Source: an uncultured cyanobacterium (lineage in GTDB: Bacteria; Cyanobacteriota; Cyanobacteriia; PCC-6307; Cyanobiaceae). Taken from it: DNA of 64,000 bases. Positions 46,462-64,000 of this stretch are shown here, piece after piece; positions within the stretch are counted from its first letter, which is position 1; every line of letters begins with the position of its first letter. The stretch spans positions 128,001-192,000 of the forward strand of contig CAVXWZ010000002.1 in the NCBI GenBank assembly GCA_963765575.1, read 5' to 3'. The notes beneath the pieces are model-generated. The model saw only the letters and a program-made list of their open reading frames with translations, was not told the origin of the DNA and searched no databases. Position numbers and translations under genes: made by a program.

Positions 46462-46489
46462 AAGGCCCCGCTACCGCGGGGCCTTTTTT
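46462..46489 (+). terminator. Rho-independent terminator after apcE
   Basis: AAGGCCCCGC-TACC-GCGGGGCCTT-TTTT. Confidence 0.85.
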
Positions 46490-47243: not shown

Positions 47244-47288
47244 GGCTGCTCCACCGCCCCATTTCTTCCTACGCCTTCAGCAGGATTC

Positions 47289-47777
47289 ATGCAAGACGCC
47301 ATCACCAACGTCATCAATCAGGCCGACGTTCAGGGTCTGTACCTTGACGGCTCTGCCATGGGCCGCCTGGAGCAGTACTTCGCCAGCGGTGAGCTGCGCG
47401 TCAGAGCTGCGGCCACCATCAGCGCCAACGGCTCCGCCATCATCAAAGAAGCCGTTGCCAAGTCGCTGCTGTACTCGGACATCACCCGTCCGGGCGGCAA
47501 CATGTACACCTGCCGTCGTTATGCGGCCTGCATCCGCGACCTCGACTACTACTTGCGCTACGCCACCTACGCCATGCTGGCGGGTGACACCTCCATCCTC
47601 GATGAGCGAGTCCTCAACGGCCTCAAGGAGACCTACAACTCCCTGGGTGTGCCGATTGGAGCCACCGTCCAGTCGATTCAGGCCATGAAGGAAGTCACCG
47701 CTTCCCTGGTTGGCCCTGACGCCGGCCGCGAGATGGCCGTCTACTTCGACTACATCTGCTCGGGTCTGGGCAACTGA
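47289..47777 (+). CDS. apcB: Allophycocyanin beta subunit
   Basis: [22 protein letters not shown]. Confidence 0.97.
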
Positions 47778-47812
47778 TCCAGAGCCTGCGGCACCCCCTG
47801 CGGATCTCTTCC

Positions 47813-48013
47813 ATGCGCCTGTTCAAGATCACGGCCTGCATCCCCTGCCCGGAGAAATCCCGCACCCAGCGGGAGCTCCAGAACACCTTCTTCACCAAGT
47901 GGGTTCCTTTTGAGAGCTGGTTCGCCGAGCAGCAGCGGATCATGAAACAGGGAGGCAAGATCCTGAAGGTGGAACTGGTCACCGGCCGCCCTCAGGTCAA
48001 TGTCGGCAACTGA
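47813..48013 (+). CDS. apcC: Allophycocyanin core linker Lc7.8
   Basis: MRLFKITAC...RTQRELQNTFFTK...EQQRIMKQGGKI. Confidence 0.96.
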   Translation: MRLFKITACIPCPEKSRTQRELQNTFFTKWVPFESWFAEQQRIMKQGGKILKVELVTGRPQVNVGN

Positions 48014-48041
48014 AGCCCTTCCCTGCTGACCATGCGTCTTG

Positions 48042-48071
48042 AGCCCGGCCCATAGCCGGGCTTTCTGTTTT
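48042..48071 (+). terminator. Probable terminator after apcC
   Basis: AGCCCGGC-CCATA-GCCGGGCT followed by TTCTGTTTT. Confidence 0.7.
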
Positions 48072-48192
48072 CCCACTCCCCGTTCGAGGCCTGCGCGCTT
48101 GTGCGGCCGTCAGATTGAGGCAGCCGGGCCTCGACAAGCCCACCCCTGGCGCGTCTCAATGGGGGCACATCGGCCCCTGCGCCAACGGCACG

Positions 48193-49428
48193 TTGAGCAT
48201 CTCCGTTCTCCGCCCCACGACAAGGCCAGCTCCCTCAAAGAGCCCGGCCCAGAATCGCCTTGCCTCGCCGCTGAAACGCCTGCTGCCCTGGCCATGGGAG
48301 GACTGGCCGGCCGAAGCGCGGCTGCTGATCGGCCTGGTGGCGCTCTGGAGTGTCTTGGGTTTGCTGGTGCTGGCCTCCGCCAGCTGGTGGGTGGCCGAAC
48401 GGGAGATGGGTGACGGCGCCTACTACCTCAAGCGCCAGCTGATCTGGATGGTGGCCAGCTGGGGGCTGCTGCTGCTGGGGGTGCGCACCCAGCTGCGCCG
48501 CTGGCTGCACATCGCCCCCATGGCTCTGCTGGTGGGCTGCCTGCTGGTGGGGGCCACGCTGGTGGTGGGGAGCACCGTGAACGGAGCCAGCCGCTGGCTG
48601 GTGATCGGTCCCCTGCAGCTGCAACCGTCCGAACTCGTCAAGCCCTTCGTGCTGCTGCAGGGGGCCGCCCTGTTCGCCCACTGGCGGCGCATCGGCCTTG
48701 ACCAGAAGCTGCTCTGGCTGGGGGTCTTCGGGCTGCTGATCCTGATGATTCTGAAGCAGCCGAACCTCAGCACCGCTGCCCTGACCGGGCTGCTGCTCTG
48801 GTTGATGGCCCTGGCTGGTGGCTTGGGGCTGCCCCTGCTGTTGGGGGCGGCCACGGCTGGTGGCGTGCTGGGAGCCGCCAGCATCTCCCTCAACACCTAC
48901 CAGCGGCTTCGGGTGGTGTCGTTCCTCAATCCCTGGCGCGATGCCCAAGGCGATGGCTACCAGCTGGTGCAGAGCCTGCTGGCCATTGGTTCCGGCGGGC
49001 TGTTCGGAGAAGGCTTTGGCCTCTCGACCCAGAAACTTCAATACCTGCCCATCCAGAGCACGGATTTCATCTTCGCGGTATTTGCCGAAGAGTTCGGCTA
49101 CGTGGGATCGCTGGTGCTGCTGCTGTTCCTGCTGCTGTTCGGGTTCGTGGGACTCAGGGTGGCCCTGAGCTGCCGCAGCAACCAGCATCGGCTGGTGGCC
49201 ATGGGCTGCACCACGCTGCTGGTGGGGCAATCGATTCTCAACATTGCCGTGGCCAGCGGCGCCATGCCCACCACCGGACTGCCGCTGCCGCTGATCAGCT
49301 ACGGCGGCAATTCCCTGATGTCCAGCCTGTTCGTCTGCGGCCTGCTGATTCGCTGCGCCCTGGAATCCGGCGGGCTGGTGCCCGTTGCCCGCGTCAGCCG
49401 TCGTCGACGCCCTGGGGCAGCCGGATAG
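48193..49428 (+). CDS. ftsW: SEDS family peptidoglycan polymerase FtsW/RodA
   Basis: NGASRW, QPSELVK, GYQLVQS, TDFIF, EEFG, PLISYGG; start uncertain. Confidence 0.92.
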   Translation: MSISVLRPTTRPAPSKSPAQNRLASPLKRLLPWPWEDWPAEARLLIGLVALWSVLGLLVLASASWWVAEREMGDGAYYLKRQLIWMVASWGLLLLGVRTQLRRWLHIAPMALLVGCLLVGATLVVGSTVNGASRWLVIGPLQLQPSELVKPFVLLQGAALFAHWRRIGLDQKLLWLGVFGLLILMILKQPNLSTAALTGLLLWLMALAGGLGLPLLLGAATAGGVLGAASISLNTYQRLRVVSFLNPWRDAQGDGYQLVQSLLAIGSGGLFGEGFGLSTQKLQYLPIQSTDFIFAVFAEEFGYVGSLVLLLFLLLFGFVGLRVALSCRSNQHRLVAMGCTTLLVGQSILNIAVASGAMPTTGLPLPLISYGGNSLMSSLFVCGLLIRCALESGGLVPVARVSRRRRPGAAG

Positions 49429-49437
49429 GCTGGCCCC

Positions 49438-50217
49438 ATGAGCGTGATCGGGCTAGCACTCTCGACTTGGGCCCTCACGATCAGTGATCTGGCCCAGCAG
49501 AGCGAGACTCTCCTGCAGCGCTCGCTCAGCACACCCGGGCCGGCAACCCTCGCGCTGGTCTTCGGGGGCGGCCTGCTCACCAGCCTTGGCCCCTGTTCCC
49601 TCTCCCTGCTGCCCGTGACCCTCGCCTACCTGGCGGGCTTCGGCGGCACGGAAGAGCGCTCCAGCGAGGCAGTGTCCAGAGACCTGACCAGCACACCCTG
49701 GCAGCGCAGCCTCTGCTTTGCCGCTGGCATCGTCGCCGCCCTGGTGCTGCTGGGCCTGGCCAGTGGCCTGCTGGGCCGGCTCTATGGCCAGATCCCTGGA
49801 TTGATCCCCACCCTGGTGGCCCTACTGGCCCTGCTGATGGGCCTCAACCTGCTGGGGTTGCTGCCCCTGCCCCTGCCGGCGGGGCCTGATCCGGAGCTCT
49901 GGCGCCAGCGGGTGCCGGCCCCCCTCGCTCCCATGGCAGCTGGCCTGGCCTTTGGCCTGGCGGCCACCCCCTGCACCACACCGGTGCTGGCCGTGCTGCT
50001 GGGCTGGATGGCCCAGACCGGGCGTCCCCTCGAGGGCATGCTGCTGCTCACCTGCTTTGGCGCCGGCCAGGTCCTGCCCTTGCTGCTGGTCGGCACCGCC
50101 GCCGCCAGCCTGCCCGGCCTGCTGAGGCTGAGGCAGGTGGGGCAGTGGGTTCCGCCGATCAGCGGCGCCGTTCTGGTGAGCACCGGCTTGCTCACGTTGG
50201 TGGCCAACTGGACGTGA
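49438..50217 (+). CDS. ccdA: Cytochrome c biogenesis protein CcdA
   Basis: SLGPCSLSLLP and TPCTTPVL Cys motifs. Confidence 0.9.
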   Translation: MSVIGLALSTWALTISDLAQQSETLLQRSLSTPGPATLALVFGGGLLTSLGPCSLSLLPVTLAYLAGFGGTEERSSEAVSRDLTSTPWQRSLCFAAGIVAALVLLGLASGLLGRLYGQIPGLIPTLVALLALLMGLNLLGLLPLPLPAGPDPELWRQRVPAPLAPMAAGLAFGLAATPCTTPVLAVLLGWMAQTGRPLEGMLLLTCFGAGQVLPLLLVGTAAASLPGLLRLRQVGQWVPPISGAVLVSTGLLTLVANWT

Positions 50218-50242
50218 ACCGGCACCCTGAGCACGAACAGCG

Positions 50243-51556
50243 ATGAACGGATCCGCCCCAAGGTTCCTGAGCCGTCTGGCGGCCTGGATCGCCGACCTGC
50301 GCGTGGCCATCGGCCTGCTGGTGGTGATCGCCATCGCCAGCGGCATCGGCACCGCCATCCCCCAGAAGGAGCCGGAGAGCCTGTACCACCGGCTCTACGA
50401 CGACCAGCCCTGGCTCGGGCTCCTCAACGGTGATCGGCTCCTGGACCTGCAGCTCGATCACGTGTACTCCAGCAGCTGGTTTCTGGGCCTGCTGGCCTGG
50501 CTCGGGCTGGCGCTGCTGCTGTGCAGCTGGCGACGGCAGTGGCCGGCCCTGCAGGCGGCCTTGCGCTGGATCGACTACCGCTCGCCGCGCCAGCTCAGCA
50601 AGCTGAGCGTGGCCCAGACCCTGCCCGCTGAGGACGCCGGTGCCAGCCTCACCCGCCTGGAGCAGCTGCTGCGCAGACAGGGCTGGCAGGTGCTGCGCCA
50701 TCCCGACCGGCTGGCGGCTCGGCGGGGCGTGCCCGGGCGTGTGGGGCCCCTGTTGGTGCATGCCGGCCTGGTGGTGCTGCTGGTGGGTTCCGCCTGGGGG
50801 GCGCTCGGGGGGCAACGGGCGGAGCAGTTTCTGGCCCCCGGCCGCACCCTCGACCTGATCGACAGCCGTGGCCACAACCAGCTCACCCTCGCCCTGGACG
50901 CCTTCGGCGTGGATCGGGATCCGGCCGGCCGGCCGGAGCAGTTTCGCTCCCAGCTGCGCCTGCTGGAGAGCTCGGAAGCCGACGCTCCGGCCCTGCTCGA
51001 ACAGGCCGAGATCAGCGTCAACCACCCGCTGCGCTTCCGCGGCGTCACCTTCTATCAGGCGGACTGGAGCCTGGCCGCCATCAGCGTGCGCCTGGGCCGC
51101 AGCCCGGAGCTGCAGTTGCCACTGCAGACCTTTCCGCAGCTCGGTGACCAGCTCTGGGGCCTGGTGCTGCCCACCCGCCCCGACGGCAGCGATCCCGTCC
51201 TGCTCAGCCTCACCAGCGAACAGGGGCCCGTTGACATCTATGGCTCCGACGGCGGCCTGATCGGTTCCCTGGCAGTGGGCGGCGATGCCCTCGAGGTGAA
51301 CGGCCTGCCGCTGCGGGTCACGGCGGTGCTGCCGGCCAGCGGCATCCTGCTCAAGCGCGACCCGGGCGTGCCCCTGGTTTACGGGGGCTTTGCGATCGCT
51401 CTGGTCGGCGGAGCGCTCAGCCTGCTGGCCACCCGCCAGCTCTGGGCCATCGCCGAACAGACCCCGGCCACCAACAGCCTGCATGTGGCGGGACTGTGCA
51501 ACCGCAATCTCACGTCCTTCGCCGCCGAACTTCCCCAACTGCTCAGCCAGGTCTGA
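50243..51556 (+). CDS. ccs1: Cytochrome c biogenesis protein Ccs1/ResB
   Basis: IGTAIPQ, LVHAG, ISVNHPL, YQADW, DPGVP. Confidence 0.92.
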
Positions 51557-51583
51557 GCACGACCGCACAGCACAGCGGCCCGT

Positions 51584-52018
51584 TCAGCAGGGCTGCCGCG
51601 TGCCGTGGCTCACCCGCACCACGGTGTGGACATTGCCCCGGGGGTTGAAGTCAGCCTCGAGCTGCATCCACTGGGGCGCACAGGCGGCCACGACGTCATC
51701 GAGGATGCGATTGGCGGCTTCTTCGTGGGAGATGGCGCGGTTGCGGTAGCTGTTTGCATAGAGCTTGATGGCCTTGAGCTCCATCACCCGCGGGCCTGGC
51801 TGATACAGCAGGCGCAGGGTGGCGAAATCGGGATAGCCCGAAAACGGGCACAGGCAGGTGAACTCCGGCAGGGTGATGGCGATCTCGTAAGGGCGGCCGG
51901 GTCGGGGATTGTCGAAGCAGATCAGTTCAGCCGCGGCGATCGCCCGCTCGCCGTAGCGGGGCGTGCGGGTCTGATCGGGGCTGGTCTGATCGGAGCTGGA
52001 CTGATCGGGGGTCGACAT
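51584..52018 (-). CDS. queF: NADPH-dependent preQ0 reductase
   Basis: EFTCLCPFSGYPDFA, ELKAIKLY, SHEE, PRG. Confidence 0.95.
   Translation of the reverse strand: MSTPDQSSSDQTSPDQTRTPRYGERAIAAAELICFDNPRPGRPYEIAITLPEFTCLCPFSGYPDFATLRLLYQPGPRVMELKAIKLYANSYRNRAISHEEAANRILDDVVAACAPQWMQLEADFNPRGNVHTVVRVSHGTRQPC
51971..52015. repeat. 3 x 15-bp imperfect tandem repeat in the queF 5' end
   Basis: CTGATCGGGGCTGGT CTGATCGGAGCTGGA CTGATCGGGGGTCGA, encoding STPDQ/SSSDQ/TSPDQ. Confidence 0.8.
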
Positions 52019-52066
52019 CGCGGCAGGCCGGCGCTGGCCGCGATCCTATGGAGCGCCAGGGCAGCC

Positions 52067-52080
52067 GTAGCAATCGCTAC
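52067..52080 (+). promoter_or_regulatory. NtcA-binding site upstream of glnB
   Basis: GTA-GCAATCGC-TAC is an exact GTA-N8-TAC; -10-like TGTGAT lies 22 nt downstream. Confidence 0.8.
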
Positions 52081-52144
52081 GACAACCCCCGATCAGCTCA
52101 GGTGTGATGGGCCTCGTCCTCGCCCAAGGGCAGGGACCCTCTGA

Positions 52145-52525
<381 letters not shown>

Positions 52526-52564
52526 GCCCTGAGCGCTCTGGCCCGCGGCTACCTCCGGCGACGC

Positions 52565-53416
52565 TCAGGGCGTCGCCAGGGTGGCCTCCACCAGGCGCCG
52601 GATCATGGCTGCGTCAAGGGGGCCAGCCCATGGCGTCCCTACTCCAGCCGGCGGGTCGCCGCCCCGTAGCCAGAGCAGATATTCGTGATTGCCCGCCGGT
52701 CCGGTGATTGGTGAGGCCACCAGGCCTGCGGGAGTCAGCTCCAGGGCGGCCGCGGCAGCGATCACTGCCGTGATTGCATCGCAATGGGCGGCGGGGTCCC
52801 GCACCACCCCACCCTTGCCCACCCGGGCCCGGCCCACCTCGAACTGGGGCTTGACCAGCACCACCAGGTCGACCCCCGCACCGGGATTCGTCGGCCGCAG
52901 CAGCGCCAGCAGCGCCGGCAGCACCAGCGCCAAAGAGATGAACGACAGATCGGCCACCGCCAGATCGGGCCGCGGGTCGGTCGGGCTGAAGAGGTCGTCC
53001 GGGGTGAGGTGACGCAGGTTGGTGCGCTCCCTGAGCACCACGCGCCCATCACTGCGCAGGCTCCAGGCCGTCTGGCCGTAGCCCACATCGATGCCATAAA
53101 CCCTGGCGGCACCACGCTGGAGCAGGCAGTCGCAGAAGCCGCCTGTGGAGATGCCGGCATCGACACACACCCGGCCCTCCAGCGGCAGGGCGAAGGCCTC
53201 CAGAGCCGGCTCCAGCTTCTCGCCACCACGGGAGACAAAGCGAGGCGGCTGGCGCACCTCCAGGGGCAGATCAACAGCCACCTCGGTGCCGGGCTTGTCC
53301 AGCACCCGATCGCCGCTGCGCACCCTGCCGGCCCGGATCAGCTGCTGACCCTGCTGACGGCTGGCGGCCAGACCCCGGGCGACCAGTTCCAGATCCAGGC
53401 GTTGCTTGCGGGCCAT
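52565..53416 (-). CDS. tlyA: TlyA family rRNA methyltransferase
   Basis: S4 domain (RLD), VSRGGEKL, GISTGGF, LVKPQFE, GNHEYL. Confidence 0.93.
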   Translation of the reverse strand: MARKQRLDLELVARGLAASRQQGQQLIRAGRVRSGDRVLDKPGTEVAVDLPLEVRQPPRFVSRGGEKLEPALEAFALPLEGRVCVDAGISTGGFCDCLLQRGAARVYGIDVGYGQTAWSLRSDGRVVLRERTNLRHLTPDDLFSPTDPRPDLAVADLSFISLALVLPALLALLRPTNPGAGVDLVVLVKPQFEVGRARVGKGGVVRDPAAHCDAITAVIAAAAALELTPAGLVASPITGPAGNHEYLLWLRGGDPPAGVGTPWAGPLDAAMIRRLVEATLATP

Positions 53417-53540
53417 GGCGCCACGCGGTGGAGCTCTGAGGTCGTGTGATCAAACCACAACCGAAACGAAACAGATTGCCTGCAGGCTCCGGGTTGTCCG
53501 GTAGTCCACGGGAAGATTGCCCCAGATCAGCCTCGCCGTC

Positions 53541-53825
53541 ATGGCCCCGCGCCTTGCCAGCCCCTCGCCCCAGGCCACCAGCCAGGCCAACAGGTGGTCC
53601 AGCCATCGCGGAGCCCGGGGCGCGCGCAGGTCCATCCGCAGCTGCGCCGAGGTGGTGGACCTGCTCCGGCCCGGCAGCTTCGTGAGACTGCGCAACCAAC
53701 CGGCGGACCTGCCGCCCTTCGAGTTGATCCGCTGCCGGGGAGGGCGCTGCTGGGTGCGGCAGCAGGCCTGGGGGGGTGCGGTGCAGTGGGAGGTGGCCCA
53801 CCGCCAGCTGAAGGCCGCCGGTTGA
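53541..53825 (+). CDS. Small hypothetical protein
   Basis: LLRPGSFVRLRNQPADLPPFELIRCRGGRCWVRQQAW; fits the gap before purB; start uncertain. Confidence 0.6.
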   Translation: MAPRLASPSPQATSQANRWSSHRGARGARRSIRSCAEVVDLLRPGSFVRLRNQPADLPPFELIRCRGGRCWVRQQAWGGAVQWEVAHRQLKAAG

Positions 53826-53905
53826 AGGCTGGGCTCGCACCCATCCTCCCGGCGCAGCCATACATTGGATGGCTGTGATGGTGGGCGTCAGCGCTCCCGC
53901 AGGCA

Positions 53906-55201
53906 TTGATCGAGCGCTACACCCTGCCCGAGATGGGCGATCTCTGGAGCGAGCAGGCCAAGTTCCAGAGCTGGCTGGATGTGGAGATCGCCGCCACTGA
54001 GGCCAACGCCGAACTGGGGCGGGTGCCCCCTGAAGCGGTTGCCACGATCAAGGCCAAAGCCGGCTTTTCGGTGCAGCGGATCCTCGAGATCGAGGCGGAG
54101 GTGCGCCATGACGTGATCGCCTTCCTCACCGATGTCAATGAGCACGTGGGCGATGCGGGCCGTTACATCCACGTGGGCATGACCAGCTCCGACGTGCTCG
54201 ACACCGGCCTGGCCCTGCAGTTGAAGGCCTCGGTGCAGCTCCTGCGCGCCGAACTCGACCAGTTGGCCGTGGCAATCCGCGAGCTGGCCCGCGCCCACAA
54301 GGGCACGGTGATGATCGGCCGCAGCCACGCCATCCATGGCGAGCCCATCACCTTCGGCTTCAAGCTGGCGGGCTGGCTGGCGGAGACGGAGCGCAACCGT
54401 GAGCGCCTGGAGCGCCTGGAGCGGGTGGTGAGTGTGGGCCAGATCAGTGGCGCCATGGGCACCTACGCCAACACCGATCCCAAGGTCGAGGAGCTCACCT
54501 GCGCCAGCCTGGGCCTGGTGCCCGACACCGCCAGCACCCAGGTGATCTCCCGGGATCGCCATGCCGAGTACGTGCAGACCCTGGCCCTGGTGGGTGCGGC
54601 CCTGGAGCGCTTCAGCACTGAGATCCGCAACCTGCAGCGCACCGACGTGCTGGAGGTGGAGGAGAACTTCGCCAAGGGGCAGAAAGGCAGCTCGGCCATG
54701 CCCCACAAGCGCAACCCGATCCGCAGCGAACGCATCAGCGGCCTGGCCAGGGTGCTGCGCAGCTACGTGGTGGCGGCGCTGGAAAACTGCGCCCTCTGGC
54801 ATGAACGCGACATCAGCCACAGCTCAGTGGAGCGGATGATGCTGCCCGACTGCTCAGCCACCCTGCACTTCATGCTGCGCGACATGACCGAGGTGGTGCG
54901 CGGGCTGGGGGTGTATCCCGACAACATGGCCCGCAACATGAATGTGTACGGCGGGGTGGTGTTCAGCCAGCGGGTGTTGCTGGCCCTGGTGGAGGCCGGC
55001 ATCAGCCGTGAACAGGCCTACCGGATCGTGCAGCGCAACGCCCACAGCGCCTGGAACACCCCCGGTGGCGACTTCCACGCCAACCTGATCGACGACCCTG
55101 AGGTGAGCAGCCAGCTCAGCGACGACCAACTGGAGGCGTGCTTCACCACCGACCTGCACCAGGCCAATCTGGGGGTGATCTGGGAGCGGCTGGGCATCTG
55201 A
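53906..55201 (+). CDS. purB: Adenylosuccinate lyase
   Basis: IERY, RHDV, TSSD, GSSAMPHKRNP. Confidence 0.97.
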   Translation: MIERYTLPEMGDLWSEQAKFQSWLDVEIAATEANAELGRVPPEAVATIKAKAGFSVQRILEIEAEVRHDVIAFLTDVNEHVGDAGRYIHVGMTSSDVLDTGLALQLKASVQLLRAELDQLAVAIRELARAHKGTVMIGRSHAIHGEPITFGFKLAGWLAETERNRERLERLERVVSVGQISGAMGTYANTDPKVEELTCASLGLVPDTASTQVISRDRHAEYVQTLALVGAALERFSTEIRNLQRTDVLEVEENFAKGQKGSSAMPHKRNPIRSERISGLARVLRSYVVAALENCALWHERDISHSSVERMMLPDCSATLHFMLRDMTEVVRGLGVYPDNMARNMNVYGGVVFSQRVLLALVEAGISREQAYRIVQRNAHSAWNTPGGDFHANLIDDPEVSSQLSDDQLEACFTTDLHQANLGVIWERLGI

Positions 55202-55237: not shown

Positions 55238-56581
55238 TTAATTGGTGAAGATGCGATAGATGGAGGCGGCGTTGAGCACCGGACCCAGGGGGGTCACGGC
55301 CTGCAACAGGAAGTCGTTGAAGCGGGTCCAGCCGTTGCGGGGCACCACCACCATGTCGCCGTTGTGCAGGGAGGGATTGGCCGGCGAATCCAGCGGTGCC
55401 GAGGGGTCAAAGATCACGCTGCGCACACTCACCTCACCGCTGGGTTCCACCCGGATCAGGCGGATCTCCTTGGTATTGGCCCGCAGCGGATCCACATCCC
55501 CAGCGGCGATCACAGCGGAGGCCAGCGGGCTGTTGGAGCGCACCTGGGTCAGGCCCGGCTGCACCACCTCACCCACCACCATGACGCCGATGGTGTCCGG
55601 GGCGAAGTTGGAGGCGGCCGTGCGGATCAGCACATCACTGGGCTGGGGTGTCTCTGCGCGGGCCACCCGAACCATGTCGCCGTCGTAGAGCAGGGGATTG
55701 ACGGTGCTGCGGTTGTTCATCAGCACCTCCAAGTAGTCGAAGCGGTACTCCACAGGCTGTCCACCGGGCACGGCGCTGGGGCGGCTGAGCACAACCTCGG
55801 AGAGGTCGGCGATCGCGGTGATGCCACCGGCCCGCTGCACCGCATCCACCAGGGTGGGCCAGCCGGCCGTGGCGATCGTGGTTTCCGAGGCGGCCGGCCC
55901 AGCCGCCGCCAGACGGGCCGCCTCCCCACCCTGGGTGAGCGTGTAGAAACCGGGCCGCTGCACCTCGCCCAGCAGGGTCACGCGCACCGGACGCGGTGCC
56001 AACAGATCGAGGTACACGAGCGGGTTGCGCAGGAAACGGTCGTAGCCCTCGGTGATGCGTTGACGCGCCTCGTCCATGGTCAGCCCCCAGACGGGCACGG
56101 CGCCCAGCCGGGGCAGGTTGACCGTGCCGTCGGCCAGCACCTCAACCACCGCCTCGTAGCCCTTCACCATGAACACGGACATGGTCAGTCGATCCCCCGG
56201 GCCGAGGCGATAGCGAAAGCCCCTGCTGCCGGGATCAATGCTGACCACGTTTGGCTGGCGCAGGGCCTGGGGCGCCGCTGGGGCGCTGCCCAGGGGAGAG
56301 CGCTTGCGGGTTTCTGCCCCCCTGGCGGCCGGCTGGGTGTCGGTGGCGGCAGGAATGGATTCGGCGGCGGCGGGAATCGGATCGCCGGGAGCCTGATCGG
56401 GGATCGGGAAGGCCTCGGGCTGGTTGGCGCCCTGGGCCAGGGTGCGGGGCGGCGCCCCCAGGGCCGTCACCAGCGCTCCGACGGGCAGCAGGCTCAGGGG
56501 GGTGAGCAGCAGGGCGGCGGCCCGGCGTCGCAGCCCGCGGCGGGCGGCTCGGTCTGCTGCGGTGAGGGGGGTAGAAGACAC
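55238..56581 (-). CDS. Polysaccharide export outer-membrane protein (Wza/KpsD-like, SLBB domains)
   Basis: YRLGPGD, DGTVNLPRLG, GEVQRPG, AGG, GDMVVVP; signal peptide. Confidence 0.88.
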   Translation of the reverse strand: MSSTPLTAADRAARRGLRRRAAALLLTPLSLLPVGALVTALGAPPRTLAQGANQPEAFPIPDQAPGDPIPAAAESIPAATDTQPAARGAETRKRSPLGSAPAAPQALRQPNVVSIDPGSRGFRYRLGPGDRLTMSVFMVKGYEAVVEVLADGTVNLPRLGAVPVWGLTMDEARQRITEGYDRFLRNPLVYLDLLAPRPVRVTLLGEVQRPGFYTLTQGGEAARLAAAGPAASETTIATAGWPTLVDAVQRAGGITAIADLSEVVLSRPSAVPGGQPVEYRFDYLEVLMNNRSTVNPLLYDGDMVRVARAETPQPSDVLIRTAASNFAPDTIGVMVVGEVVQPGLTQVRSNSPLASAVIAAGDVDPLRANTKEIRLIRVEPSGEVSVRSVIFDPSAPLDSPANPSLHNGDMVVVPRNGWTRFNDFLLQAVTPLGPVLNAASIYRIFTN

Positions 56582-56675: not shown

Positions 56676-57644
56676 GTGAAGACGACCGACGGAAATCCGC
56701 TGAATCTCTCCGCCGCGATCGCTCTTCCCCAGGATCGGGTCCAAGCGGATCTGGCTCCCTTCCTGCTGCTGTCCTCCCAGGGCCTGGATCTCTACCTGCT
56801 GCCCGGCGAGCGCTTTGGTCCCTACGCCGAACCGGTGGGGGAGCTGCGCGAACTCACCTACCGACAGCAGCTCTCGGGCTCCGGCAAGAGCCGGGATCTG
56901 GACAGCCGCGATCCCCATTACGACCACTTCCTGCTGGTGGAGAGCAACAGTGGCGAATTGGCGGGATCGGCACGCCTGCAGTTCGTCCCCGCTCGCGCGA
57001 GCGGCGACCAATCCGCAGCGGGGTTGCCGCCCTTGCCGGGTGGGGCGCAGTCCTACCTGGAACATGTGTATCCGGGCATCAAGGCCCATCTGGCCAGCCA
57101 GGGCAACCACCTGGAGATCGGCCGTGTGGCCCTGGCGCCACGGTTTCAGCGTCAGCCCCACACCCTGATGCTGCTGTTTCGCGGCGGTCTTCAGGTGGCC
57201 GTGGGAGCCGGTTACAGCTCCATCCATGGTCTGGTCTCCTACAACCACTTCGCCTACGACGAAACGGTGAACCGGGAGTTTCTCAGCACCCTGCTGCGTC
57301 CCCCCTTCCTCGATCCCTCCAGCCCCCATCCACAGCCGCGCCATCCGGTGGCAGGTCTCGCCCCCGCGCCCAGCCCCGCTGCCGTGGCCAGCATCCAGGA
57401 ACTGGAACTGCACATCCGCCACGACCTGGACCCATCCTTCCGTCTGCCCGTGCTGCTGCGCCAGTACTTCAACCTGATGGAGGCCAGCGTGCGCAACCTC
57501 TCTCTGGCCCGGGACTTCAACCAGATCACCGAGATCCTGATGGCCGCCGATCTGCGGCGGATCCCGACCCGCCGGCTGGAACACTTCATCGACGTCGACC
57601 ATCGGCCGATCTACCGGAGTTTCAGCTGGTACCGGGGAGGATGA
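56676..57644 (+). CDS. GNAT-fold N-acyltransferase of OlsB / OlsF C-terminal type
   Basis: GELRELTYR..GSGKSRDLDSRDPHYDHFLL, LEIGRV...RFQ, LPVLLRQY, DF..I..L..ADL. Confidence 0.75.
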   Translation: MKTTDGNPLNLSAAIALPQDRVQADLAPFLLLSSQGLDLYLLPGERFGPYAEPVGELRELTYRQQLSGSGKSRDLDSRDPHYDHFLLVESNSGELAGSARLQFVPARASGDQSAAGLPPLPGGAQSYLEHVYPGIKAHLASQGNHLEIGRVALAPRFQRQPHTLMLLFRGGLQVAVGAGYSSIHGLVSYNHFAYDETVNREFLSTLLRPPFLDPSSPHPQPRHPVAGLAPAPSPAAVASIQELELHIRHDLDPSFRLPVLLRQYFNLMEASVRNLSLARDFNQITEILMAADLRRIPTRRLEHFIDVDHRPIYRSFSWYRGG

Positions 57645-57701: not shown

Positions 57702-58052
57702 ATGCACGCAGGCCCCGACAACGACAGCAGCGGAGCCGCGTCCCCCATTCCTGGCGCCAATCGCCAACCGAGGGCCCACGACACCGCCACTCCCGGCCGG
57801 CAGAGCCTGCAGGAGCGGCTGATCGAGATTCTGCAGCGCATCTCAGGGGCTGATCCGGAGCAGATCACCCCTGATGCCCGGCTGATCGAAGACATCGGCA
57901 TCGACTCCCTGGGCTTCTACGAAATCCTGATCGAGGCGGACGAGTGCCTGGGCATCAAGATCCGGGAAGAGGATCTGCTCGGCTTCCGCACCGTGGGGGA
58001 TGTGCAGCGGCACCTGGAGTCCCTGGAGCGGGACCATGGCCCGAACAACTGA
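57702..58052 (+). CDS. Acyl carrier protein
   Basis: ITPDARLIEDIGIDSL phosphopantetheine motif; LGIKI; TVGDV. Confidence 0.88.
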   Translation: MHAGPDNDSSGAASPIPGANRQPRAHDTATPGRQSLQERLIEILQRISGADPEQITPDARLIEDIGIDSLGFYEILIEADECLGIKIREEDLLGFRTVGDVQRHLESLERDHGPNN

Positions 58053-59292
58053 GCGCATCGCGGTCACCGGCTGGGGGGCCATCACCCCGCTGGCCGCCGA
58101 TGCCGACGCCACCTGGGCGGCCATGGTCGCGGGCCACTCCGGCATTACGGCCCTAGACCAGGCCTGGGCCAGCGACCTGCCCGCCCGCATCGGCGGCTGC
58201 GTTGCCGAGGACATCGCCAGCGAGCTCGAACCGCTCCAGCGCCGCCGCCTGGATCGCTGCTCCCAGCTCGGCCTGCTGGCCGCGCGCCAGGCCTGGGCCC
58301 AGGCCCGACCGCAGCTGGCGGGGATCGATGCGGCCCGGGTGGCGGTGGTGATCGGCACGGGCATCGGCGGGCTGGCGACCCTGGAGCGGCAGCACCGCAA
58401 TCTGCTGGAGGCCGGCCCGAGCCGGGTCAATCCGCTCACCGTGCCGATGCTGATTCCCAATGCCGCAGCCGGCCAGATCGCCATTGACCTGGGCTTGCAT
58501 GGCGGCGCCCACACGCCGGTGTCGGCCTGCGCCTCCGGAGCGGAAGCGCTGCTGCTGGCCCAACTGCTGCTCAACGACGACCGCGCCGACGTGGTCATCG
58601 CCGGCGGCAGTGAGGCGCCCGTGAACCGGCTGGGCCTGGTGGGCTTTGCGGCCATGCGTGCCCTCTCCTGCCGCAATGGGGCCCCGGATCAGGCCTCCCG
58701 CCCCTACGGCCGCGACCGGGACGGCTTCGTGCTCTCGGAGGGGGCGGGGGCGCTGGTGTTGCAGCGGCAGAGCGACCTTGCCCCCGGCGCTCCCCAACCC
58801 CTGGGCTGGCTGCTCGCCTGCGGCAGCAGCAGCGACGGCCACCACATCGTGGCGCCGGAGCCGCAGGGGCTGCGGGCCAGCGCCGCCATGGCCGACGCCC
58901 TCAGACGGGCCGACATCGGCGTTGACGCCCTGAGCTTCGTGCAGGCCCATGCCACCGGCACGCCGCTGGGCGATCTGGCGGAGGCCCGGGCGCTGGCCCG
59001 AACCCTGGGTGCCCGCGTCGAGGACCTGCCGGTGACGGCCCCGAAGGGCCAGCTGGGCCACCTGCTCGGAGCCGCCGGAGCCGTGGAGACGATCCTGGTG
59101 CTGCAGGCCCTGCGCCAGGGCCTTGTGCCCCGCAGTGTCAACGCCGACCCCCTCGACCCGGCGATCGCGCTGGCGGTGGTACAGGACGGTCCACTCCGGC
59201 TGCCGGGCGGTGCCGACGGCGGCGAGCGCTACGCCCTCAAGAACGCCTTCGGTTTCGGCGGCCACAACATCAGCCTGGTGCTGGCGGCCTGA
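58036..59292 (+). CDS. Beta-ketoacyl-ACP synthase (FabF-like)
   Basis: VTGWGAITP, catalytic Cys in SACASG, HATGT, KGQLGH, NAFGFGGHN. Confidence 0.92.
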   Translation: MARTTERIAVTGWGAITPLAADADATWAAMVAGHSGITALDQAWASDLPARIGGCVAEDIASELEPLQRRRLDRCSQLGLLAARQAWAQARPQLAGIDAARVAVVIGTGIGGLATLERQHRNLLEAGPSRVNPLTVPMLIPNAAAGQIAIDLGLHGGAHTPVSACASGAEALLLAQLLLNDDRADVVIAGGSEAPVNRLGLVGFAAMRALSCRNGAPDQASRPYGRDRDGFVLSEGAGALVLQRQSDLAPGAPQPLGWLLACGSSSDGHHIVAPEPQGLRASAAMADALRRADIGVDALSFVQAHATGTPLGDLAEARALARTLGARVEDLPVTAPKGQLGHLLGAAGAVETILVLQALRQGLVPRSVNADPLDPAIALAVVQDGPLRLPGGADGGERYALKNAFGFGGHNISLVLAA

Positions 59293-61312
59293 GGGCGGGG
59301 CCGGCGTAGTGGGCCTGAACGGCCTGCACGAAGGCGCGGCGGTCGCCCGGCTGCTCCTGGATCTGCAGCTCCCGGGCGCGGCCCCGGCGGCAGTGGATCG
59401 TGGCCAGGGGGGCCGTGAGCCGGGAGAGCAGCAACCGCAGCGGCCGATAGAGGTCGCTGGCCGAAGTGGAAAGCCCGTAGTAGCTGAAGGTCCAGGGCAC
59501 GATCAGGGCTCCATGCTTGCGGGCCAGGATCAGGGCGCTGGCGGAAACCCGCTCGCTGATCGGCGTCACCAGGGAGCCATTGGGGGCCAGCATCACCTGG
59601 CCACGCTGGGCCAGCGTGCGCGACGCCCCGTACACGGCCGAGGTGCGCGAGCGGCCATCGCGATGGTCCATCAGGCCATGGCCGGCATTCGCCGCCGAGG
59701 CCGCGAACCAGGGCATGATCCGGCTCAGGTGCAGGCTGGCGGTGGTGATGCTGGGGAGCCGCAGCACCCCCTGAACCACCAGCACATCGGCGGGGTGCTC
59801 GTGGTTCCAGATGTGCACCAGGGGAAGGCCCTCGGGCTCGCTGGGATGGCTGTCATCCACCACCACGCTGATGCCCAGGGCCCGCAGTCCCACCAGGGCC
59901 GTGGCGACGAGCAAGCGGGCGGCCAGCCGGCGGCAGCCCAGAGCCAGCGCCAGCAGTTGCAGCCCGTAGACCAGGAAATAGGAGACCCCCCAGAAGGATC
60001 GGGCCAGCACCCGCAGCGGCAGCAGCAGGCGGTTGTCCCGGGCCGCTTGGCCGGGGGCGGGAAGCTGCGGGCGCGGTGACAGCCGGCGGGCCTCCGGTCC
60101 AATGGGGAAGGTGGTGCGGAAGGGGAAGTCGCCGTCGAAATTGCCGTTCACCTGCGTGGTGGTCACCAGGTGGTCGTAGAAGCGGTAAAAGAGCGGCCGG
60201 TCGCTGGTATGGGGTTCGCGCCAGAACTGATCCAGGGGCTGCTGATCGGTGAGACCGGGGAGGTTGTAGAAGGTCTGGCCCATCACCTTGGTGGGTACCG
60301 CGTGATAAAGGGCCTGCAGTCCCACGGAGCTGTTGACGGTCACCACGCCGCGACAGGTGCGCAGGAAGCGGCTGAGGGCACCGTCATGGAAGTAGTGCAC
60401 CCGGCCCGCCAGCCCATGGCGATGGGCCAACAACTGGATCAGCCGTCCGTAGTGGTTGTAGCCCCGGTCGCGGGGGTGGTGCTTGAAGGCGAGGTGGTCG
60501 GAGGCATGGGCATGGCGGGCAAAGGAGGTGATCACGTCTTCGATGAAGTCGTGCATTCCCCGGTAGGGCGAACCCAGCTGCACCTGGGAATCACTCGACA
60601 CCTGCAACACCACCAGAAAGAACGAGAGGTGCTCCAGCAGGCGCTGTTTCAGGGTGCGCTGCTGCCAGCGATAGAGCCAGTAGCGCCAGTTGCCGCGCAG
60701 CTGGCACCAGAGAAAACGCGGCGAGGGCTGCAGCTTGTGCTCACCCTCGATGATCGGGTACCGGGTGAAGGCGTGCTGGATGAAGGTGGGGGCCTTCCAG
60801 AGCTTGCGCCAGCGCCAGCCGGGATCCAGCTGGCCCTGGGGGAGCGCATCCACCGGCGGCAACTGGTGGTAGAAGTCGGCGGGCTGGTTGAGATTGGAGC
60901 GGGCATTGACCCGCTCGCGCTCAAGGGTCACGTAGTTGGGCCGGATGTAGCCGAGCTCGAACACCCAGGCCTCGATGCCGGCGCTGCGCGCCTCTTCGAT
61001 GGCCATGCGGTGGGGAATGATGAAGTCGCCATACATGAAGATGTGGCGAATTCCGCGCTCGACGATCAGCTGGCGCAGAAACGGCCGCCACTCCTCCATC
61101 GAGCCACTGAAGGGCACCCGCACCTCCCGGGGGAAGCCGAACTCATGCAGCGGGAAGCTCACCTTGGTGACGGGAATGCCGCAGCCGCGCAGGTAGCGGC
61201 AGAAGCGGGCGAAGAACAGTCCGATCGGCCCCATCAGCAGCAACACCGGCCCGTCGATCTGCACCTGAACCAACTGCACCGGAGCCGGAGCGGGGGCCCG
61301 TTCTGTGGTCAA
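59270..61312 (-). CDS. kpsS: KpsS-like capsule glycolipid Kdo-transferase fused to a C-terminal PlsC-like acyltransferase domain
   Basis: LLLMGPIG, VFELGYIRPNYVTLE, QVSSDSQ, KHHPRDRG, VNSSVG; then a TM-like segment, NHEHPAD (NHx4D) and LAPNGS. Confidence 0.82.
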   Translation of the reverse strand: MTTERAPAPAPVQLVQVQIDGPVLLLMGPIGLFFARFCRYLRGCGIPVTKVSFPLHEFGFPREVRVPFSGSMEEWRPFLRQLIVERGIRHIFMYGDFIIPHRMAIEEARSAGIEAWVFELGYIRPNYVTLERERVNARSNLNQPADFYHQLPPVDALPQGQLDPGWRWRKLWKAPTFIQHAFTRYPIIEGEHKLQPSPRFLWCQLRGNWRYWLYRWQQRTLKQRLLEHLSFFLVVLQVSSDSQVQLGSPYRGMHDFIEDVITSFARHAHASDHLAFKHHPRDRGYNHYGRLIQLLAHRHGLAGRVHYFHDGALSRFLRTCRGVVTVNSSVGLQALYHAVPTKVMGQTFYNLPGLTDQQPLDQFWREPHTSDRPLFYRFYDHLVTTTQVNGNFDGDFPFRTTFPIGPEARRLSPRPQLPAPGQAARDNRLLLPLRVLARSFWGVSYFLVYGLQLLALALGCRRLAARLLVATALVGLRALGISVVVDDSHPSEPEGLPLVHIWNHEHPADVLVVQGVLRLPSITTASLHLSRIMPWFAASAANAGHGLMDHRDGRSRTSAVYGASRTLAQRGQVMLAPNGSLVTPISERVSASALILARKHGALIVPWTFSYYGLSTSASDLYRPLRLLLSRLTAPLATIHCRRGRARELQIQEQPGDRRAFVQAVQAHYAGPALRPPAPG

Positions 61313-61367: not shown

Positions 61368-63377
61368 TCAGCGCTGCCGCAGCCGCCCCCAGTGCCGGAA
61401 GATCCGCTGCCGCAGGCTCAGGGGACGGGGCGGTGCCGAGCGCCAGGCCAGCAACTCCTCGATCGCCTGCTCCGGCTCGATGAACAGGCCGCTATGGCGG
61501 CTCACGTACAGCGGATAGTCGATCAGGGCGGCATGGACCAGGGCATCCAGGGGCAGGGGCCGCCCCCGGCGCTCGCAGCTCAGGCGGTCGTGGCTGAGGC
61601 CCCAGCCGGCGTAGAAGGGCAAGCCCCAGGTGTGCACCTCCAGCTCCCGCAGCAGGGCCTCGAAACCGGCGATCGAGGTGAGCACGTGCAGGGCATCGAC
61701 CTGGGTGAACAATTGCTGGATCGAGGCGTCCACCAGCAGCTCGTCACACCAGTCCAGTGCCGCGTGTTCCCCCGAACCCGGCCGGCACAGCCCCGCCACC
61801 ACGTCGGGGTGGGGCTTGTAGACGAGATGGGCCGAGGGCTCGGCGGCCCGCACCGCCTGCAGCAGAGCCAGATTGGTGCGCAGCCCGGGGGCCCCCAGCC
61901 GGATTGAGGCATCGGCTTCCACCTGTCCCACCACCAGCACCACCCGGCGGGCAGCGTCCGGACGGCGCCAGGCCGGGGCCAGGAGGTTGTACTTCGTGAT
62001 CGCCTGCTCCACCAGCCGGCTGCGCAGACCCCGGGCCCGCAGCAGTTGCCTGTCGTCCCATGACCCGGTGGCCAGCAGCTGTTCGAGCTCACTGGGGGCG
62101 CTGGCGTCGTAATAGATGCCGCGCCGGTCGATCACCCAGGACATCGGATCGATCAGGTCGGCCCCAAGCCCCACCGAGCGCAGGAAGCCGTCCTCGGCGT
62201 GCAGCAGCGGCAGATCGCGGCGGCGGGCCGCCTGCAGCAGGGCGGGCTTGGCGCGCCGGCCCCACACCGCCAGCGCCTCGGCGCGGCGGCCCGGCCGCTG
62301 CCAGGGAAACCGGAACCGCAACCGGCTGCCGGCCAGGAAGCGGCGCAGCACCCGCTGTTTCCAGGGGGTGAAGCCGAAGGCCTCGATGCGCTCGGGATTG
62401 CGGCAACGGTGCCGGCGCTGCAGGCCGATCGCCGTGATCAGGTCCTCCACCGCGCAGGGCCGCTGCCGGTGGGGATCGATGTACACGGCGTAATCGACCA
62501 GGGCCGCATGGATCAGATCACCGAGCTGCCGCGGCCCCCGCCGCGCGGGCGCGGGGGCGTGGTCCCGGGTGAGTCCCCAGCCGCCATAGAAGGGCATGCC
62601 GAAGCAGTGCACCGGCCGGCCCCAGAGCAGGGCCTCAAAGCCCAGCTGGGAGGTGACCACATACACCGCCTCAGCCCGCTCGAGCAGGGCCGCGGGGTGG
62701 CCGCCGCTGGCCTCGAGCTTGATGCGCGGATGCCGCAACTGGCGGGCCTGGAAATGGCCGCGCTTGCGGCCGCGGACCACATCCGGATGGGTCTTGACGA
62801 CCACCGTGCGCTGCGGATGGTCGGCCAGGGCGGCGGCGAGCATGGCGGCGAAGCTGCCGCGATCGGCCCCACCCAGGCCGATCGAGAGGTCACCGGCCGT
62901 CTGATCGACCACCAGCACGAAGGGCTCGGCCGGCGCCGCCGCCTCGCGGCTGCCGTTGTACTTGCTCACCCGCTGCTGGCACCACAGGCGGCGGATGGCG
63001 GCGGCCCGCAGCAACTGGGCCGGGCTGTGGGCGGCAGCGATCAGGCGCTCCAGGCGGGAGGGGGCGGCGGCGGCGTAATAGATGCCGGCGTCATCGATCA
63101 CCAGGCCCAGGGGCACGCTGTCGGGCCCCAGGCCCAGGGAACGCAGAAAGGCGTCTTCACAGCGCCAGAGCGGCAGCTTGCGCCGCCGTGCCAGCCGCTC
63201 GGCCCGGCGGGCGCTGGGCTTGTGGCCCCAGGCCAGCAGGGCATCGAGCTCGGCGCCGGCGCAGCGGGCCGCCCCGCTCACCAGGTGGTGGTCGGCCAGC
63301 AGCGCCGCCAGGGTGCTGTGGCGCAGCATGCCGGCGGCCGGCAGCCCCAGACGGGCCGCGGGGAGAGGAGAGGCCAA
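61368..63377 (-). CDS. kpsC: KpsC-like two-domain capsule Kdo-transferase
   Basis: Tandem domains each with ED.FLRS, QTAGD/QVEAD, K.HPD, TS..GFEALL and G.PFY.GWGL. Confidence 0.9.
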
Positions 63378-63441: not shown

Positions 63442-63744
63442 ATGGCTGCTACGTTCAGCCCCACCGCTGCCGGGGACACGGCCAAGGTGCTGATCGACAG
63501 CTTCATGGACTCCTCCATCGACCGGCTCTGCGCGGCGGTCGCTGAAGAGGTGGGCATGCCCGTGGGGCGGGTCCGCCGGGTGGTGCTGGCCCTCCAGCGC
63601 CAGCGGCAGCGCTCCATGGCCGGCATCGCGGCGGCGAGCGCCGCGGCTCCCGGTCTGGAGGCCGCTGCGCCCGATGATCCCCTGCGCTGGTATCCGCTCG
63701 GGGCCAATGGCCGGCTGCGTCCCCCCGGGCCGGATCAGCCATGA
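63442..63744 (+). CDS. Small hypothetical protein with a possible helix-turn-helix
   Basis: ATG 63442; VAEEVGMPVGRVRRVV; stop overlaps the next ATG. Confidence 0.55.
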   Translation: MAATFSPTAAGDTAKVLIDSFMDSSIDRLCAAVAEEVGMPVGRVRRVVLALQRQRQRSMAGIAAASAAAPGLEAAAPDDPLRWYPLGANGRLRPPGPDQP

Positions 63745-64000
63745 GCAGCCCCGGCGCCGCGGCCGCCATCGATTCCGACCTGCCGGCCCTGGCCCTGATC
63801 CCGGCACGGGGCGGCTCCAAGGGCGTGCCGGGCAAGAACCTCCGCAGCGTGGGGGATGTCGCTCTGCTCGCCCGTACGGTGCGTGCCAGCAGAGCGGCCC
63901 ACAGCATCGGTCCCGTGTGGGTGAGCAGCGACGACACGGCCATCGGCGCCCTCGCCGAGCGTGAAGGGGCCGGCTGGTTGCGGCGACCAGCCGACCTGGC
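63741..64000 (+). CDS. Acylneuraminate cytidylyltransferase family protein (NeuA-like), truncated by the window end
   Basis: Manual translation ALIPARGGSKGVPGKNLRSVG...VWVSSDD...RRPADL; not in the ORF track because no stop lies in the window. Confidence 0.88.
   Translation, partial: MSSPGAAAAIDSDLPALALIPARGGSKGVPGKNLRSVGDVALLARTVRASRAAHSIGPVWVSSDDTAIGALAEREGAGWLRRPADL

Follow-up and report, generated by a model that had tools for sequence, protein, structure and literature searches.

A KpsS-acyltransferase fusion in a picocyanobacterial capsule locus and the anchor lipid it may help to build

Capsules of E. coli groups 2 and 3 are described as carrying oligo-beta-Kdo that KpsS and KpsC place on (lyso)phosphatidylglycerol, with export by KpsMTED. 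The KpsS of these systems is described as monofunctional, whereas the KpsS encoded in the window, i.e. the whole stretch of 64,000 nucleotides from an uncultured member of the Cyanobiaceae that was analysed here, bears an acyltransferase of 280 aa, and we asked which lipid such a protein would serve. The first-pass annotation had read the gene as KpsS joined in frame to a PlsC-like acyltransferase and had proposed a domain search as a check. This search placed both Pfam families in one 680-aa frame (Table 1), with PF05159 (Capsule_synth) at residues 91-392 (E 1e-57, 196 bits versus a curated cut-off of 20) and PF01553 (Acyltransferase) at residues 493-609 (cut-off 23 bits; 23.5 bits within the whole protein and 25.6 bits when the C-terminal piece is scored by itself). 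The annotated motif positions were correct as well, with QVNGNF closing the KpsS part at residues 387-392 (60154-60137), NHEHPAD at 503-509 (59806-59786) and APNGSL at 576-581 (59587-59570), and so was the order of a Pro-rich linker at about residues 393-430 and a hydrophobic segment, which hydropathy resolves into stretches at about 440-460 and 463-486. This segment aligns in part with the N-terminal region of T. maritima PlsC, and its two predicted helices are probably a membrane tether. The NCBIfam KpsS equivalog NF050054 aligned with residues 22-392 at 275.6 bits, under its cut-off of 600 bits, and the protein with its second domain also departs from the single-domain form of that family. 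Residues E119, Q237, D241, H279 and P280 of the KpsS domain are invariant in 44 aligned proteins and belong to catalytic motifs; the roles of the QXXXD Asp, the His and the Glu are known from KpsC (PMC10148158), the general-base Glu of which would correspond to E119.

Table 1. Features of the capsule locus within the window
Feature	Position	Strand	Remarks
KpsD/Wza-type outer-membrane export protein	55238..56581	(-)	Poly_export + SLBB
OlsF-C-half/OlsB-type GNAT N-acyltransferase	56676..57644	(+)	322 aa; PF13444
Second acyl carrier protein	57783..58052	(+)	DSL motif; start uncertain, frame opens 57699
Second FabF-type ketosynthase	58000..59292	(+)	23-nt overlap of its end with the end of the fusion
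KpsS-acyltransferase fusion gene	59270..61312	(-)	680 aa, single open frame, TTG start; same frame kept in homologues
PF01553 acyltransferase core	59486..59836	(-)	residues 493-609
Motifs of the acyltransferase core	NHEHPAD 59786-59806; TTASLHL 59726-59746; APNGSL 59570-59587; RVSAS 59537-59551	(-)	
Two hydrophobic/amphipathic helices (predicted)	59855..60022	(-)	residues about 431-486; from hydropathy
Pro-rich linker	60023..60136	(-)	residues about 393-430; second half variable
KpsS (beta-Kdo transferase-type) domain	60137..61249	(-)	residues 22-392
Motifs of the KpsS domain	FELGY 60947-60961; QVSSD (= QXXXD) 60590-60604; KHHP 60473-60484	(-)	
kpsC	61368..63377	(-)	QXXXD and HP motifs in both of its modules; translation probably starts about 19 codons inside the frame
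Start of CMP-transferase (NeuA-like)	63741..64000	(+)	opens the variable sugar block, which runs past the window

The frame could have arisen from an assembly error or frameshift joining two genes, as the first-pass annotation had allowed. Scattered frameshifts do divide 9 of 163 compared genes of this assembly, and split forms of KpsS and acyltransferase occur in nature. All 56 full-length homologues (601-700 aa) match the C-terminal part, however, 54 of them with both Pfam domains precomputed, which refutes the artefact, and the C-terminal extension is present without a break in 41/41 KpsS frames examined from related genomes. A contig from another run covers 59820-60176 gap-free, leaving an artefact with a vanishingly small chance. 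At the level of sequence comparison, a real fusion of a KpsS domain with a predicted membrane-bound HX4D acyltransferase is confirmed. One low-depth contig of run X1 omits 72 nt at 59929-60002. In a search of 61 genomes, the C-terminal domain was found in 28, in 27 of them without a stop within the match. Outside this family, the search for the fusion gave no match in 24 other families of the class, nor any in plasmids. One of 250 other genomes of the phylum has PF05159 at E 1e-35, a strict cut-off that misses divergent PF05159 proteins in a published table of KpsS-like proteins, and this one is a KpsC-like protein without the neighbours of the fusion; 12 other profile matches, mostly longer, are HAD-acyltransferases or plain acyltransferases. 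The published table gives KpsS-like proteins of 650-675 aa for the cultured strains WH8102 (SYNW0400), CC9902, CC9605, BL107 and PCC 7001, and as these lengths equal that of the fusion, the anchor question would be directly testable in culture. No description of the fusion/N-acyltransferase module was found in the literature searched, and promoter and terminator scans gave nothing exceeding shuffles.

The HX4D dyad (NH-x4-D), with its catalytic His and Asp, is kept in 56/56 homologues and together with the PF01553 score places the C-terminal domain in the PlsC/LPLAT superfamily; 29 of 30 Atlas matches are PF01553, the first at 0.97. Its dN/dS, 0.05-0.19 across 14 pairs in which the domain is intact, indicates purifying selection. 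The nearest solved relative by sequence is T. maritima PlsC (5KYM; E 0.54 with the profile and 0.006 with P0114), which shares HX4D and N-terminal hydrophobic helices. Unlike PlsC proper (LPA acyltransferase), the domain is without the block II Lys, the Glu and Arg of the block III motif FPEGTR and the block IV Lys, scores 17-32 bits with TIGR00530 (cut-off 103) and forms its own clade. A housekeeping PlsC was rejected, since these residues are replaced and the genome has other PlsC-type genes. The first-pass annotation had seen in block III an E-to-N change hinting at a non-glycerophosphate acceptor; the loss of Glu stands, but not the specific exchange, as Asn is found in 52/56 and Ser in 4/56 close homologues and Ser in 15/16 more distant rows. 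The losses of the Arg and of two conserved Lys are the stronger signs of an altered acceptor: the LPA phosphate is believed to be bound by Arg159 of PlsC, in place of which the aminolipid acyltransferase SalA has Val (PMC8319176), and the block III of SalA, as described, resembles the fused domain in being without this Arg. The acceptor is likely to be something other than lysophosphatidic acid, in keeping with the annotated hint. Arg556 and Arg588 are new and invariant. The motif also differs from the HX5D described for OlsF-N, SalA and SqdA (bioRxiv 10.1101/2022.08.18.504050); P0002, P0103 and P0114 gave no match to the OlsA, GlsA and OlsF models, and the domain here, unlike these enzymes, is joined to a glycosyltransferase. 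A detached N-half of OlsF is likewise unsupported (hhalign probability 0.4%).

The main and most constant partner of the fusion is an OlsF-type GNAT. It carries PF13444 and matches the C-half of OlsF along its full length, aligning with positions 278-569 of NF052615 (E 7e-12) and, by hhalign (98%, 257 columns), with the C-half of a Flavobacterium protein of 601 aa; at 44.8 bits against the OlsF equivalog cut-off of 620 it is a homologue, not OlsF. Of 111 family genomes, 24 have the GNAT, and precisely these 24 have PF05159 (KpsS/KpsC), a pattern that reflects one inherited cassette and not 24 independent events. In none of the 87 other family genomes was the GNAT subfamily found without KpsS/KpsC, and only 4 further genomes have any PF13444 protein. 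GNAT adjoins KpsS in the loci fetched, and in most of them a second ACP and FabF (25% and 37% identity to the genome's other ACP and FabF, respectively) lie between GNAT and fusion; both are absent in 4 genomes. The first-pass annotation made no mention of the gene at 56676-57644. A constant N-acyltransferase neighbour, accompanied in most loci by a dedicated ACP and FabF, sets this locus apart from E. coli groups 2 and 3; the pairing of an N-acyltransferase of the OlsF-C-half type with an acyltransferase of the PlsC family instead resembles OlsB + OlsA, OlsF and GlsB + GlsA, although the Ols, Gls and SalA products are described as membrane lipids and not as glycan anchors.

The remaining locus resembles E. 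coli groups 2 and 3 in the Glu, QXXXD and HP motifs of KpsS, the two-module KpsC, an island of kpsD-, kpsE-, kpsM- and kpsT-like genes, and Kdo synthesis genes located elsewhere in the genome. With kpsE, kpsM and kpsT at C2:225.6-229.9 kb, the gene set kpsC, kpsS, kpsD, kpsE, kpsM and kpsT of a group 2-type ABC-dependent capsule is complete, the kpsE and kpsM matches being under their family cut-offs; kpsE is frameshifted in this assembly and whole in G008 and G010. The GNAT-fusion pair lies within a conserved kpsD/C/M/T/E cassette. Beyond the window, the variable sugar block holds 3 DUF6716 genes, NeuB, and glycosyl- and sulfotransferases, and the DUF6716 block is present in only 15 of the 24 KpsS genomes. 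kdsA is found in 24/24 KpsS genomes, lending weak support to a Kdo-primed anchor as it occurs in 65/111 family genomes overall, and 15 of the 24 are without a waaA match. Use by KpsS of the nonulosonate from the NeuA/NeuB/DUF6716 block in place of Kdo is weakened by the distributions of the DUF6716 block and kdsA.

A decayed fused domain is followed immediately by an intact low-GC stand-alone copy in G302, G295 and G323. In G061 and G091 the His and part of the core are gone from the fused domain, and no replacement was found. Acyltransferase activity thus seems to matter more than fusion, and the second acylation would not always be needed. A Prochlorococcus-type contig has the acyltransferase domain as a stand-alone gene adjoining kpsS, as do all stand-alone copies of known context. 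The first-pass annotation had suggested that the fusion couples acylation to first-sugar transfer; the fusion itself holds, yet these copies show that physical coupling is not required.

To our preferred reading we give about an even chance: an ABC-transporter-dependent (group 2-like) capsule system making its own Kdo-primed anchor, a purpose-built and probably phosphate-free N,O-diacyl lipid. On this reading, these abundant phototrophs would build their capsule anchor lipid rather than borrow a membrane phospholipid. The GNAT would move the first, probably 3-hydroxy, acyl chain from acyl-ACP, supplied by the dedicated ACP/FabF pair where present, onto the nitrogen of a small hydroxy-amine such as serine, an amino sugar or an amino alcohol. 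The second chain would be attached by the HX4D domain of the fusion, which its two helices would hold in the inner membrane. The KpsS domain would then put the first beta-Kdo from CMP-Kdo on the free hydroxyl of the diacyl lipid, KpsC would lengthen the Kdo linker, and the polymer would be made by variable glycosyltransferases and exported by KpsMTED. That the KpsS acceptor itself is acylated, we infer. Pairs of N- and O-acyltransferases make acyloxyacyl aminolipids (PMC12971839). We favour a dedicated anchor because GNAT and PF05159 co-occur in 24/24 genomes with the pair in a conserved cassette while the DUF6716 block varies, because the whole GNAT aligns with the N-acyltransferase half of OlsF, because PlsC block residues are lost in a genome with other PlsC-type genes, because low-GC stand-alone copies replace the decayed domain in three genomes, and because of the kdsA and waaA distributions. 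Against it stand the characterised KpsS, which uses (lyso)phosphatidylglycerol (PMC10148158), a review reporting no aminolipids in cyanobacteria, the failure of the HX4D domain to match OlsA, GlsA or OlsF models or the OlsF N-half, the decay without replacement in G061 and G091, and the 4 genomes missing ACP and FabF.

The anchor could still be phosphatidylglycerol, with the fused domain re-acylating lyso-PG or Kdo-lyso-PG or installing a special chain made by ACP and FabF, and the GNAT acting elsewhere. The conserved KpsS motifs and the lipid used by known KpsS fit this, HX4D enzymes are described as acylating lyso-lipids that bear head groups (bioRxiv 10.1101/2022.08.18.504050), and such an acceptor would also account for the lost phosphomonoester-binding Arg, with Arg556 and Arg588 possibly binding an anionic head. 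We consider it unlikely, as the 24/24 link to an aminolipid-type N-acyltransferase is left unexplained by a lipid without an amine. Alternatively, the two acyltransferases might act on the amino and hydroxyl groups of a linker or polymer sugar, either following the first Kdo transfer or independently of it; the product would be a Vi-like diacyl-hexosamine end or an acyl decoration. Vi antigen is described with a diacyl-HexNAc terminus and, inside its ABC-exported capsule locus, a dedicated acyltransferase, VexE, which shapes the anchor and is likened here by its role; SqdA acylates an already glycosylated glycerol (bioRxiv 10.1101/2022.08.18.504050), and the low-GC stand-alone copies are swapped in and out, a common pattern among surface-modifying genes. 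Vi loci are, however, described without kpsS and kpsC, both of which are kept here with the acyltransferase fused to KpsS, and an anchor suits a pair that does not vary with the sugar block better than a serotype decoration does, making sugar acylation rather improbable.

Still more doubtful is a free membrane aminolipid, made by GNAT and acyltransferase and merely travelling with the capsule island, with the fused domain mainly tethering KpsS to the membrane: the GNAT subfamily was not found without KpsS/KpsC (87/87 other genomes) and the stand-alone acyltransferases of known context all lie next to kpsS, even though such copies exist, decayed domains retain the N-terminal hydrophobic part in 5/5 cases and the decayed G061/G091 domain has a dN/dS of 0.18. 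As for dedicated anchors in other bacteria, the Sinorhizobium K-antigen (rkp) and Burkholderia wcb loci have lipid-synthesis genes beside kpsS/kpsC-like genes and are thought to make their own lipid carrier, using a polyketide synthase and an aminotransferase-type enzyme, not a GNAT and a fused HX4D domain. The Sinorhizobium K-antigen is described as poly-Kdo with a lipid anchor on which rkpA has an effect.

According to reviews, ABC-exported capsules as a rule share a conserved phosphatidylglycerol-oligo-Kdo terminus, from which only Vi antigen is known to depart. If KpsS here works with N- and O-acyltransferases of its own, the locus would add a second exception, in which KpsS and KpsMT accept a different lipid. 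More specifically, and with somewhat less than an even chance, picocyanobacteria may have a third lipid terminus, a phosphate-free acyloxyacyl aminolipid with oligo-Kdo. It would come from an OlsF-like pathway in which KpsS carries the O-acyltransferase, encoded in a low-GC cassette that strains exchange. Such a terminus would be neither phosphatidylglycerol-Kdo nor the Vi diacyl-HexNAc, and would represent an aminolipid in cyanobacteria. Among 111 genomes sampled from the family, to which Cyanobium, marine Synechococcus and Prochlorococcus belong, 24 possess the module, and a phosphate-free anchor would suit organisms that are sparing with phosphorus.

The frame 59270–61312(−) runs for 680 codons without a stop, and a Pfam scan placed Capsule_synth at residues 91–392 (E 1e-57) and PF01553 Acyltransferase, barely above the cut-off, at residues 493–609; the C-terminal 280 aa alone scored 25.6 bits to PF01553, and 29 of 30 Atlas look-alikes were PF01553 clusters. 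The union of KpsS and acyltransferase in one frame, proposed in the first-pass annotation with motif coordinates that were correct on recheck, was borne out by 56 homologues of 601–700 aa matching the C-terminal part, 54 of which carry both Pfam domains. A search of 61 genomes detected this part in 28 (26 of 31 within the genus; one match, in G030, contains a TGA), with no match in 24 other families. Both domains were continuous in 16/16 relatives' loci, the named relatives being Cyanobium and related picocyanobacteria, and all 41 KpsS frames from the window and the fetched loci extended at least 238 aa further. As a comparison with the relative G008 shows 9 of 163 genes broken into separate frames in the source assembly (G000), three of them at the first 36–51 residues only, it is fair to doubt the join; a contig from another sequencing run (X1) spans 59820–60176 with 18 substitutions and no gaps. 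An artefact is extremely improbable: the fusion is real, conserved and family-restricted, and sits centrally in a capsule cassette.

The window corresponds to G000:C2:128001–192000, and its gene order is purB, kpsD-like (−), a GNAT-type N-acyltransferase gene, ACP and FabF (+), kpsS-acyltransferase and kpsC (−), and the start of a sugar block, continuing past the window, with NeuA-like, three DUF6716, NeuB, sulfo- and glycosyltransferase genes. kpsE, kpsM and kpsT lie about 36 kb further along in G000 and no more than a few kb from the core in G124, G112, G126 and G104. The GNAT protein aligned to positions 278–569 of the OlsF model, in its C-half (E 7e-12), and, at 98% probability, to the C-half of a Flavobacterium protein of 601 aa; the OlsF C-half is an N-acyltransferase according to the accessible text of two sources (bioRxiv 10.1101/2022.08.18.504050; PMC12971839). 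Among 111 family genomes of at least 96% completeness, G000 included, PF05159 occurred in 24 and the GNAT subfamily in the identical 24 (any PF13444 protein in 28), the acyltransferase domain at E 1e-20 in 22, kdsA in 65 including all 24, DUF6716 in 15, all within the 24, and waaA in 15 from two genera, nine within the 24. KpsS is patchy by genus (1/7, 1/5 and 2/3 in several) and GNAT accompanies it every time, for which no statistic is claimed because the genomes are kin sharing one cassette. ACP and FabF are missing from the KpsS loci of G124, G112, G126 and G308, genomes in which a 38% paralogue was the only FabF found in place of the dedicated one.

Further features are listed in the table. 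The NeuA-like/DUF6716/NeuB genes, a candidate nonulosonate polymer block whose product we take to be possibly Kdn-like, are present in 15/111 genomes, each KpsS-bearing. In one subgroup (G002, G012, G019, G009 and G016; L037–L041) kpsC and kpsS lie in opposite orientations, and the two are therefore not always one transcript. Since about 1 in 20 compared genes is split, the broken kdsA and kpsE-like frames of G000 more likely reflect assembly error than decay. kdsA without a KpsS/KpsC or waaA match in 35/111 genomes makes another Kdo-using enzyme in the family likely, and a second PF13444 subfamily of ~395-aa frames (G063, G093, G147 and G157, all without kpsS) is possibly a true OlsB-like aminolipid gene.

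Coordinates of features in the source genome and a related locus
Feature	Position	Remark
NeuA-like CMP-transferase, 3 DUF6716 putative glycosyltransferases, CBS-NeuB-SAF-TIM-barrel synthase	window 63741-64000 + L044:1742-8467	
kdsA, split in two frames	G000:C2:543610-544399 (L048, L049)	one-base insertion vs relatives
kpsE-like gene, split in two frames	G000 C2:225604-226666 (L099, L100)	one-base insertion vs relatives
gap between kpsC and kpsS fusion	L069 (G154) 7042-8399	1.3 kb; close relatives without gap
acyltransferase gene running straight into waaA, then third gene	G000:C11:127.2-130.1 kb (L057:677-3530)	second acyltransferase/Kdo-transferase pairing; presumably DUF374-like (acyltransferase) and lpxK-like (third gene)
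apcE, apcA, apcB, ftsW, ccdA, ccs1, queF, glnB, tlyA, purB	window 43214-55201	presumably ordinary cyanobacterial genes

The NCBIfam KpsS model spans residues 22–392 with a score below its cut-off, and none of E119, Q237, D241, H279 and P280 varies among 44 aligned proteins; in KpsC the nucleophile is the Asp of QXXXD and the other catalytic residues are a His and a Glu (accessible part of PMC10148158). dN/dS was 0.02–0.11 for the KpsS domain in every computable pair and 0.05–0.19 for the acyltransferase domain in 14 pairs with intact domains. The ACYLTRANSFERASE domain keeps NH-x4-D in 56/56 homologues, with PNGS as block III in 52 of them and PSGS in the other 4; this block is given as FP[E/S]G[T/V] in PMC8319176 (in part). 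Alignment with T. maritima PlsC, the sole solved relative found, led to a small or variable residue for Lys105, Asn/Ser for Glu157 and Leu for Arg159, and the FKxG-block Lys is replaced by Ser. Arg159 is thought to bind the LPA phosphate, Lys105 works on the ACP side, and in SalA, an aminolipid enzyme, Val takes the place of Arg159 (same part of PMC8319176). The earlier hint of a non-glycerophosphate acceptor is thus upheld by the lost Lys105, Arg159 and FKxG Lys, while the E-to-N change on which it had been based is not the best reason; the missing phosphate-side Arg159, as in SalA, is stronger ground. Fused and stand-alone acyltransferases form one clade (37 of 51 tree rows, support 97/94) separate from the FPEGTR proteins, with Asn in 20/21 rows of one subclade and Ser in 15/16 others under a midpoint root with long branches. 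Of the other PF01553 genes in G000, one retains the Lys105 and Arg159 equivalents.

Motifs are lost in 5/41 fused acyltransferase domains. In three genomes (G302, G295 and G323) the decayed copy is directly followed by a stand-alone acyltransferase that is intact, 250–270 aa long and of 42–44% GC within a 61% region, and in G110 both copies are intact; the low-GC stand-alone copies are inserted between the fusion and fabF (L058, L086, L087 and L088 for G110, G302, G295 and G323). The stand-alone copies form a clade of their own in the 51-row tree and are not recent duplicates. Low-GC insertion with fused-copy decay in three of four genomes may represent an exchange of anchor acyl specificity; decayed copies gave dN/dS of 0.29–0.56 in three pairs, one more pair being saturated. 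On a 2-kb contig kpsS, a stand-alone acyltransferase (whose cluster mate carries a Prochlorococcus label) and GNAT are three separate genes, and together with the stand-alone copies near decayed fusions this indicates that acyltransferase activity is kept near kpsS even without fusion. In G061 and G091 (L071, L072) the fused domain is shortened, with the catalytic His and part of the core gone, at a dN/dS still of 0.18; ACP and FabF are retained, and no replacement acyltransferase was found in either genome, which is evidence against necessity of the domain. Their GNAT is changed at otherwise invariant residues, which fits a coupled pair, in one lineage.

An N-acyltransferase plus an O-acyltransferase is the route to acyloxyacyl aminolipids (PMC12971839, in part). 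Here the GNAT/acyltransferase pair is placed in the serotype-independent part of the capsule locus, with its second enzyme fused to the predicted first-Kdo enzyme. The simplest reading, to which we give an even chance, has the locus make a dedicated N,O-diacyl lipid whose free hydroxyl accepts Kdo: GNAT would N-acylate and the fused domain O-acylate the putative anchor lipid, the KpsS domain would put the first Kdo on that hydroxyl, and the ketosynthase and ACP, without a reductase or dehydratase of their own, might provide 3-hydroxyacyl donors of a fixed chain length. A re-acylated PG anchor is unlikely, though the foremost alternative. Known KpsS is described as monofunctional with (lyso)PG as acceptor (accessible part of PMC10148158). 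Somewhat less probable still is acylation of a linker or polymer sugar as in Vi antigen, which with VexE is presented as the single known variation in the parts available of PMC8760489 and PMC13721041. We consider improbable, slightly more so, that the product is a free membrane aminolipid and the fused domain a tether.

The rkp and wcb loci serve as comparison systems. In Sinorhizobium poly-Kdo is carried on a lipid anchor (PMC5539429, in part), the accessible text of PMC13171606 does not mention acyltransferases, and neither acyltransferase nor PF01553 appears as a word in that of PMC4594306, which lists Synechococcus and Cyanobium KpsS-like proteins of 650–675 aa. A literature search, with most subscription papers outside its reach, found no published description of the fusion or the module. 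The locus represents a variant group 2 capsule system, undescribed in the literature searched, and there is a fair chance that this variant uses an anchor lipid of a new kind.
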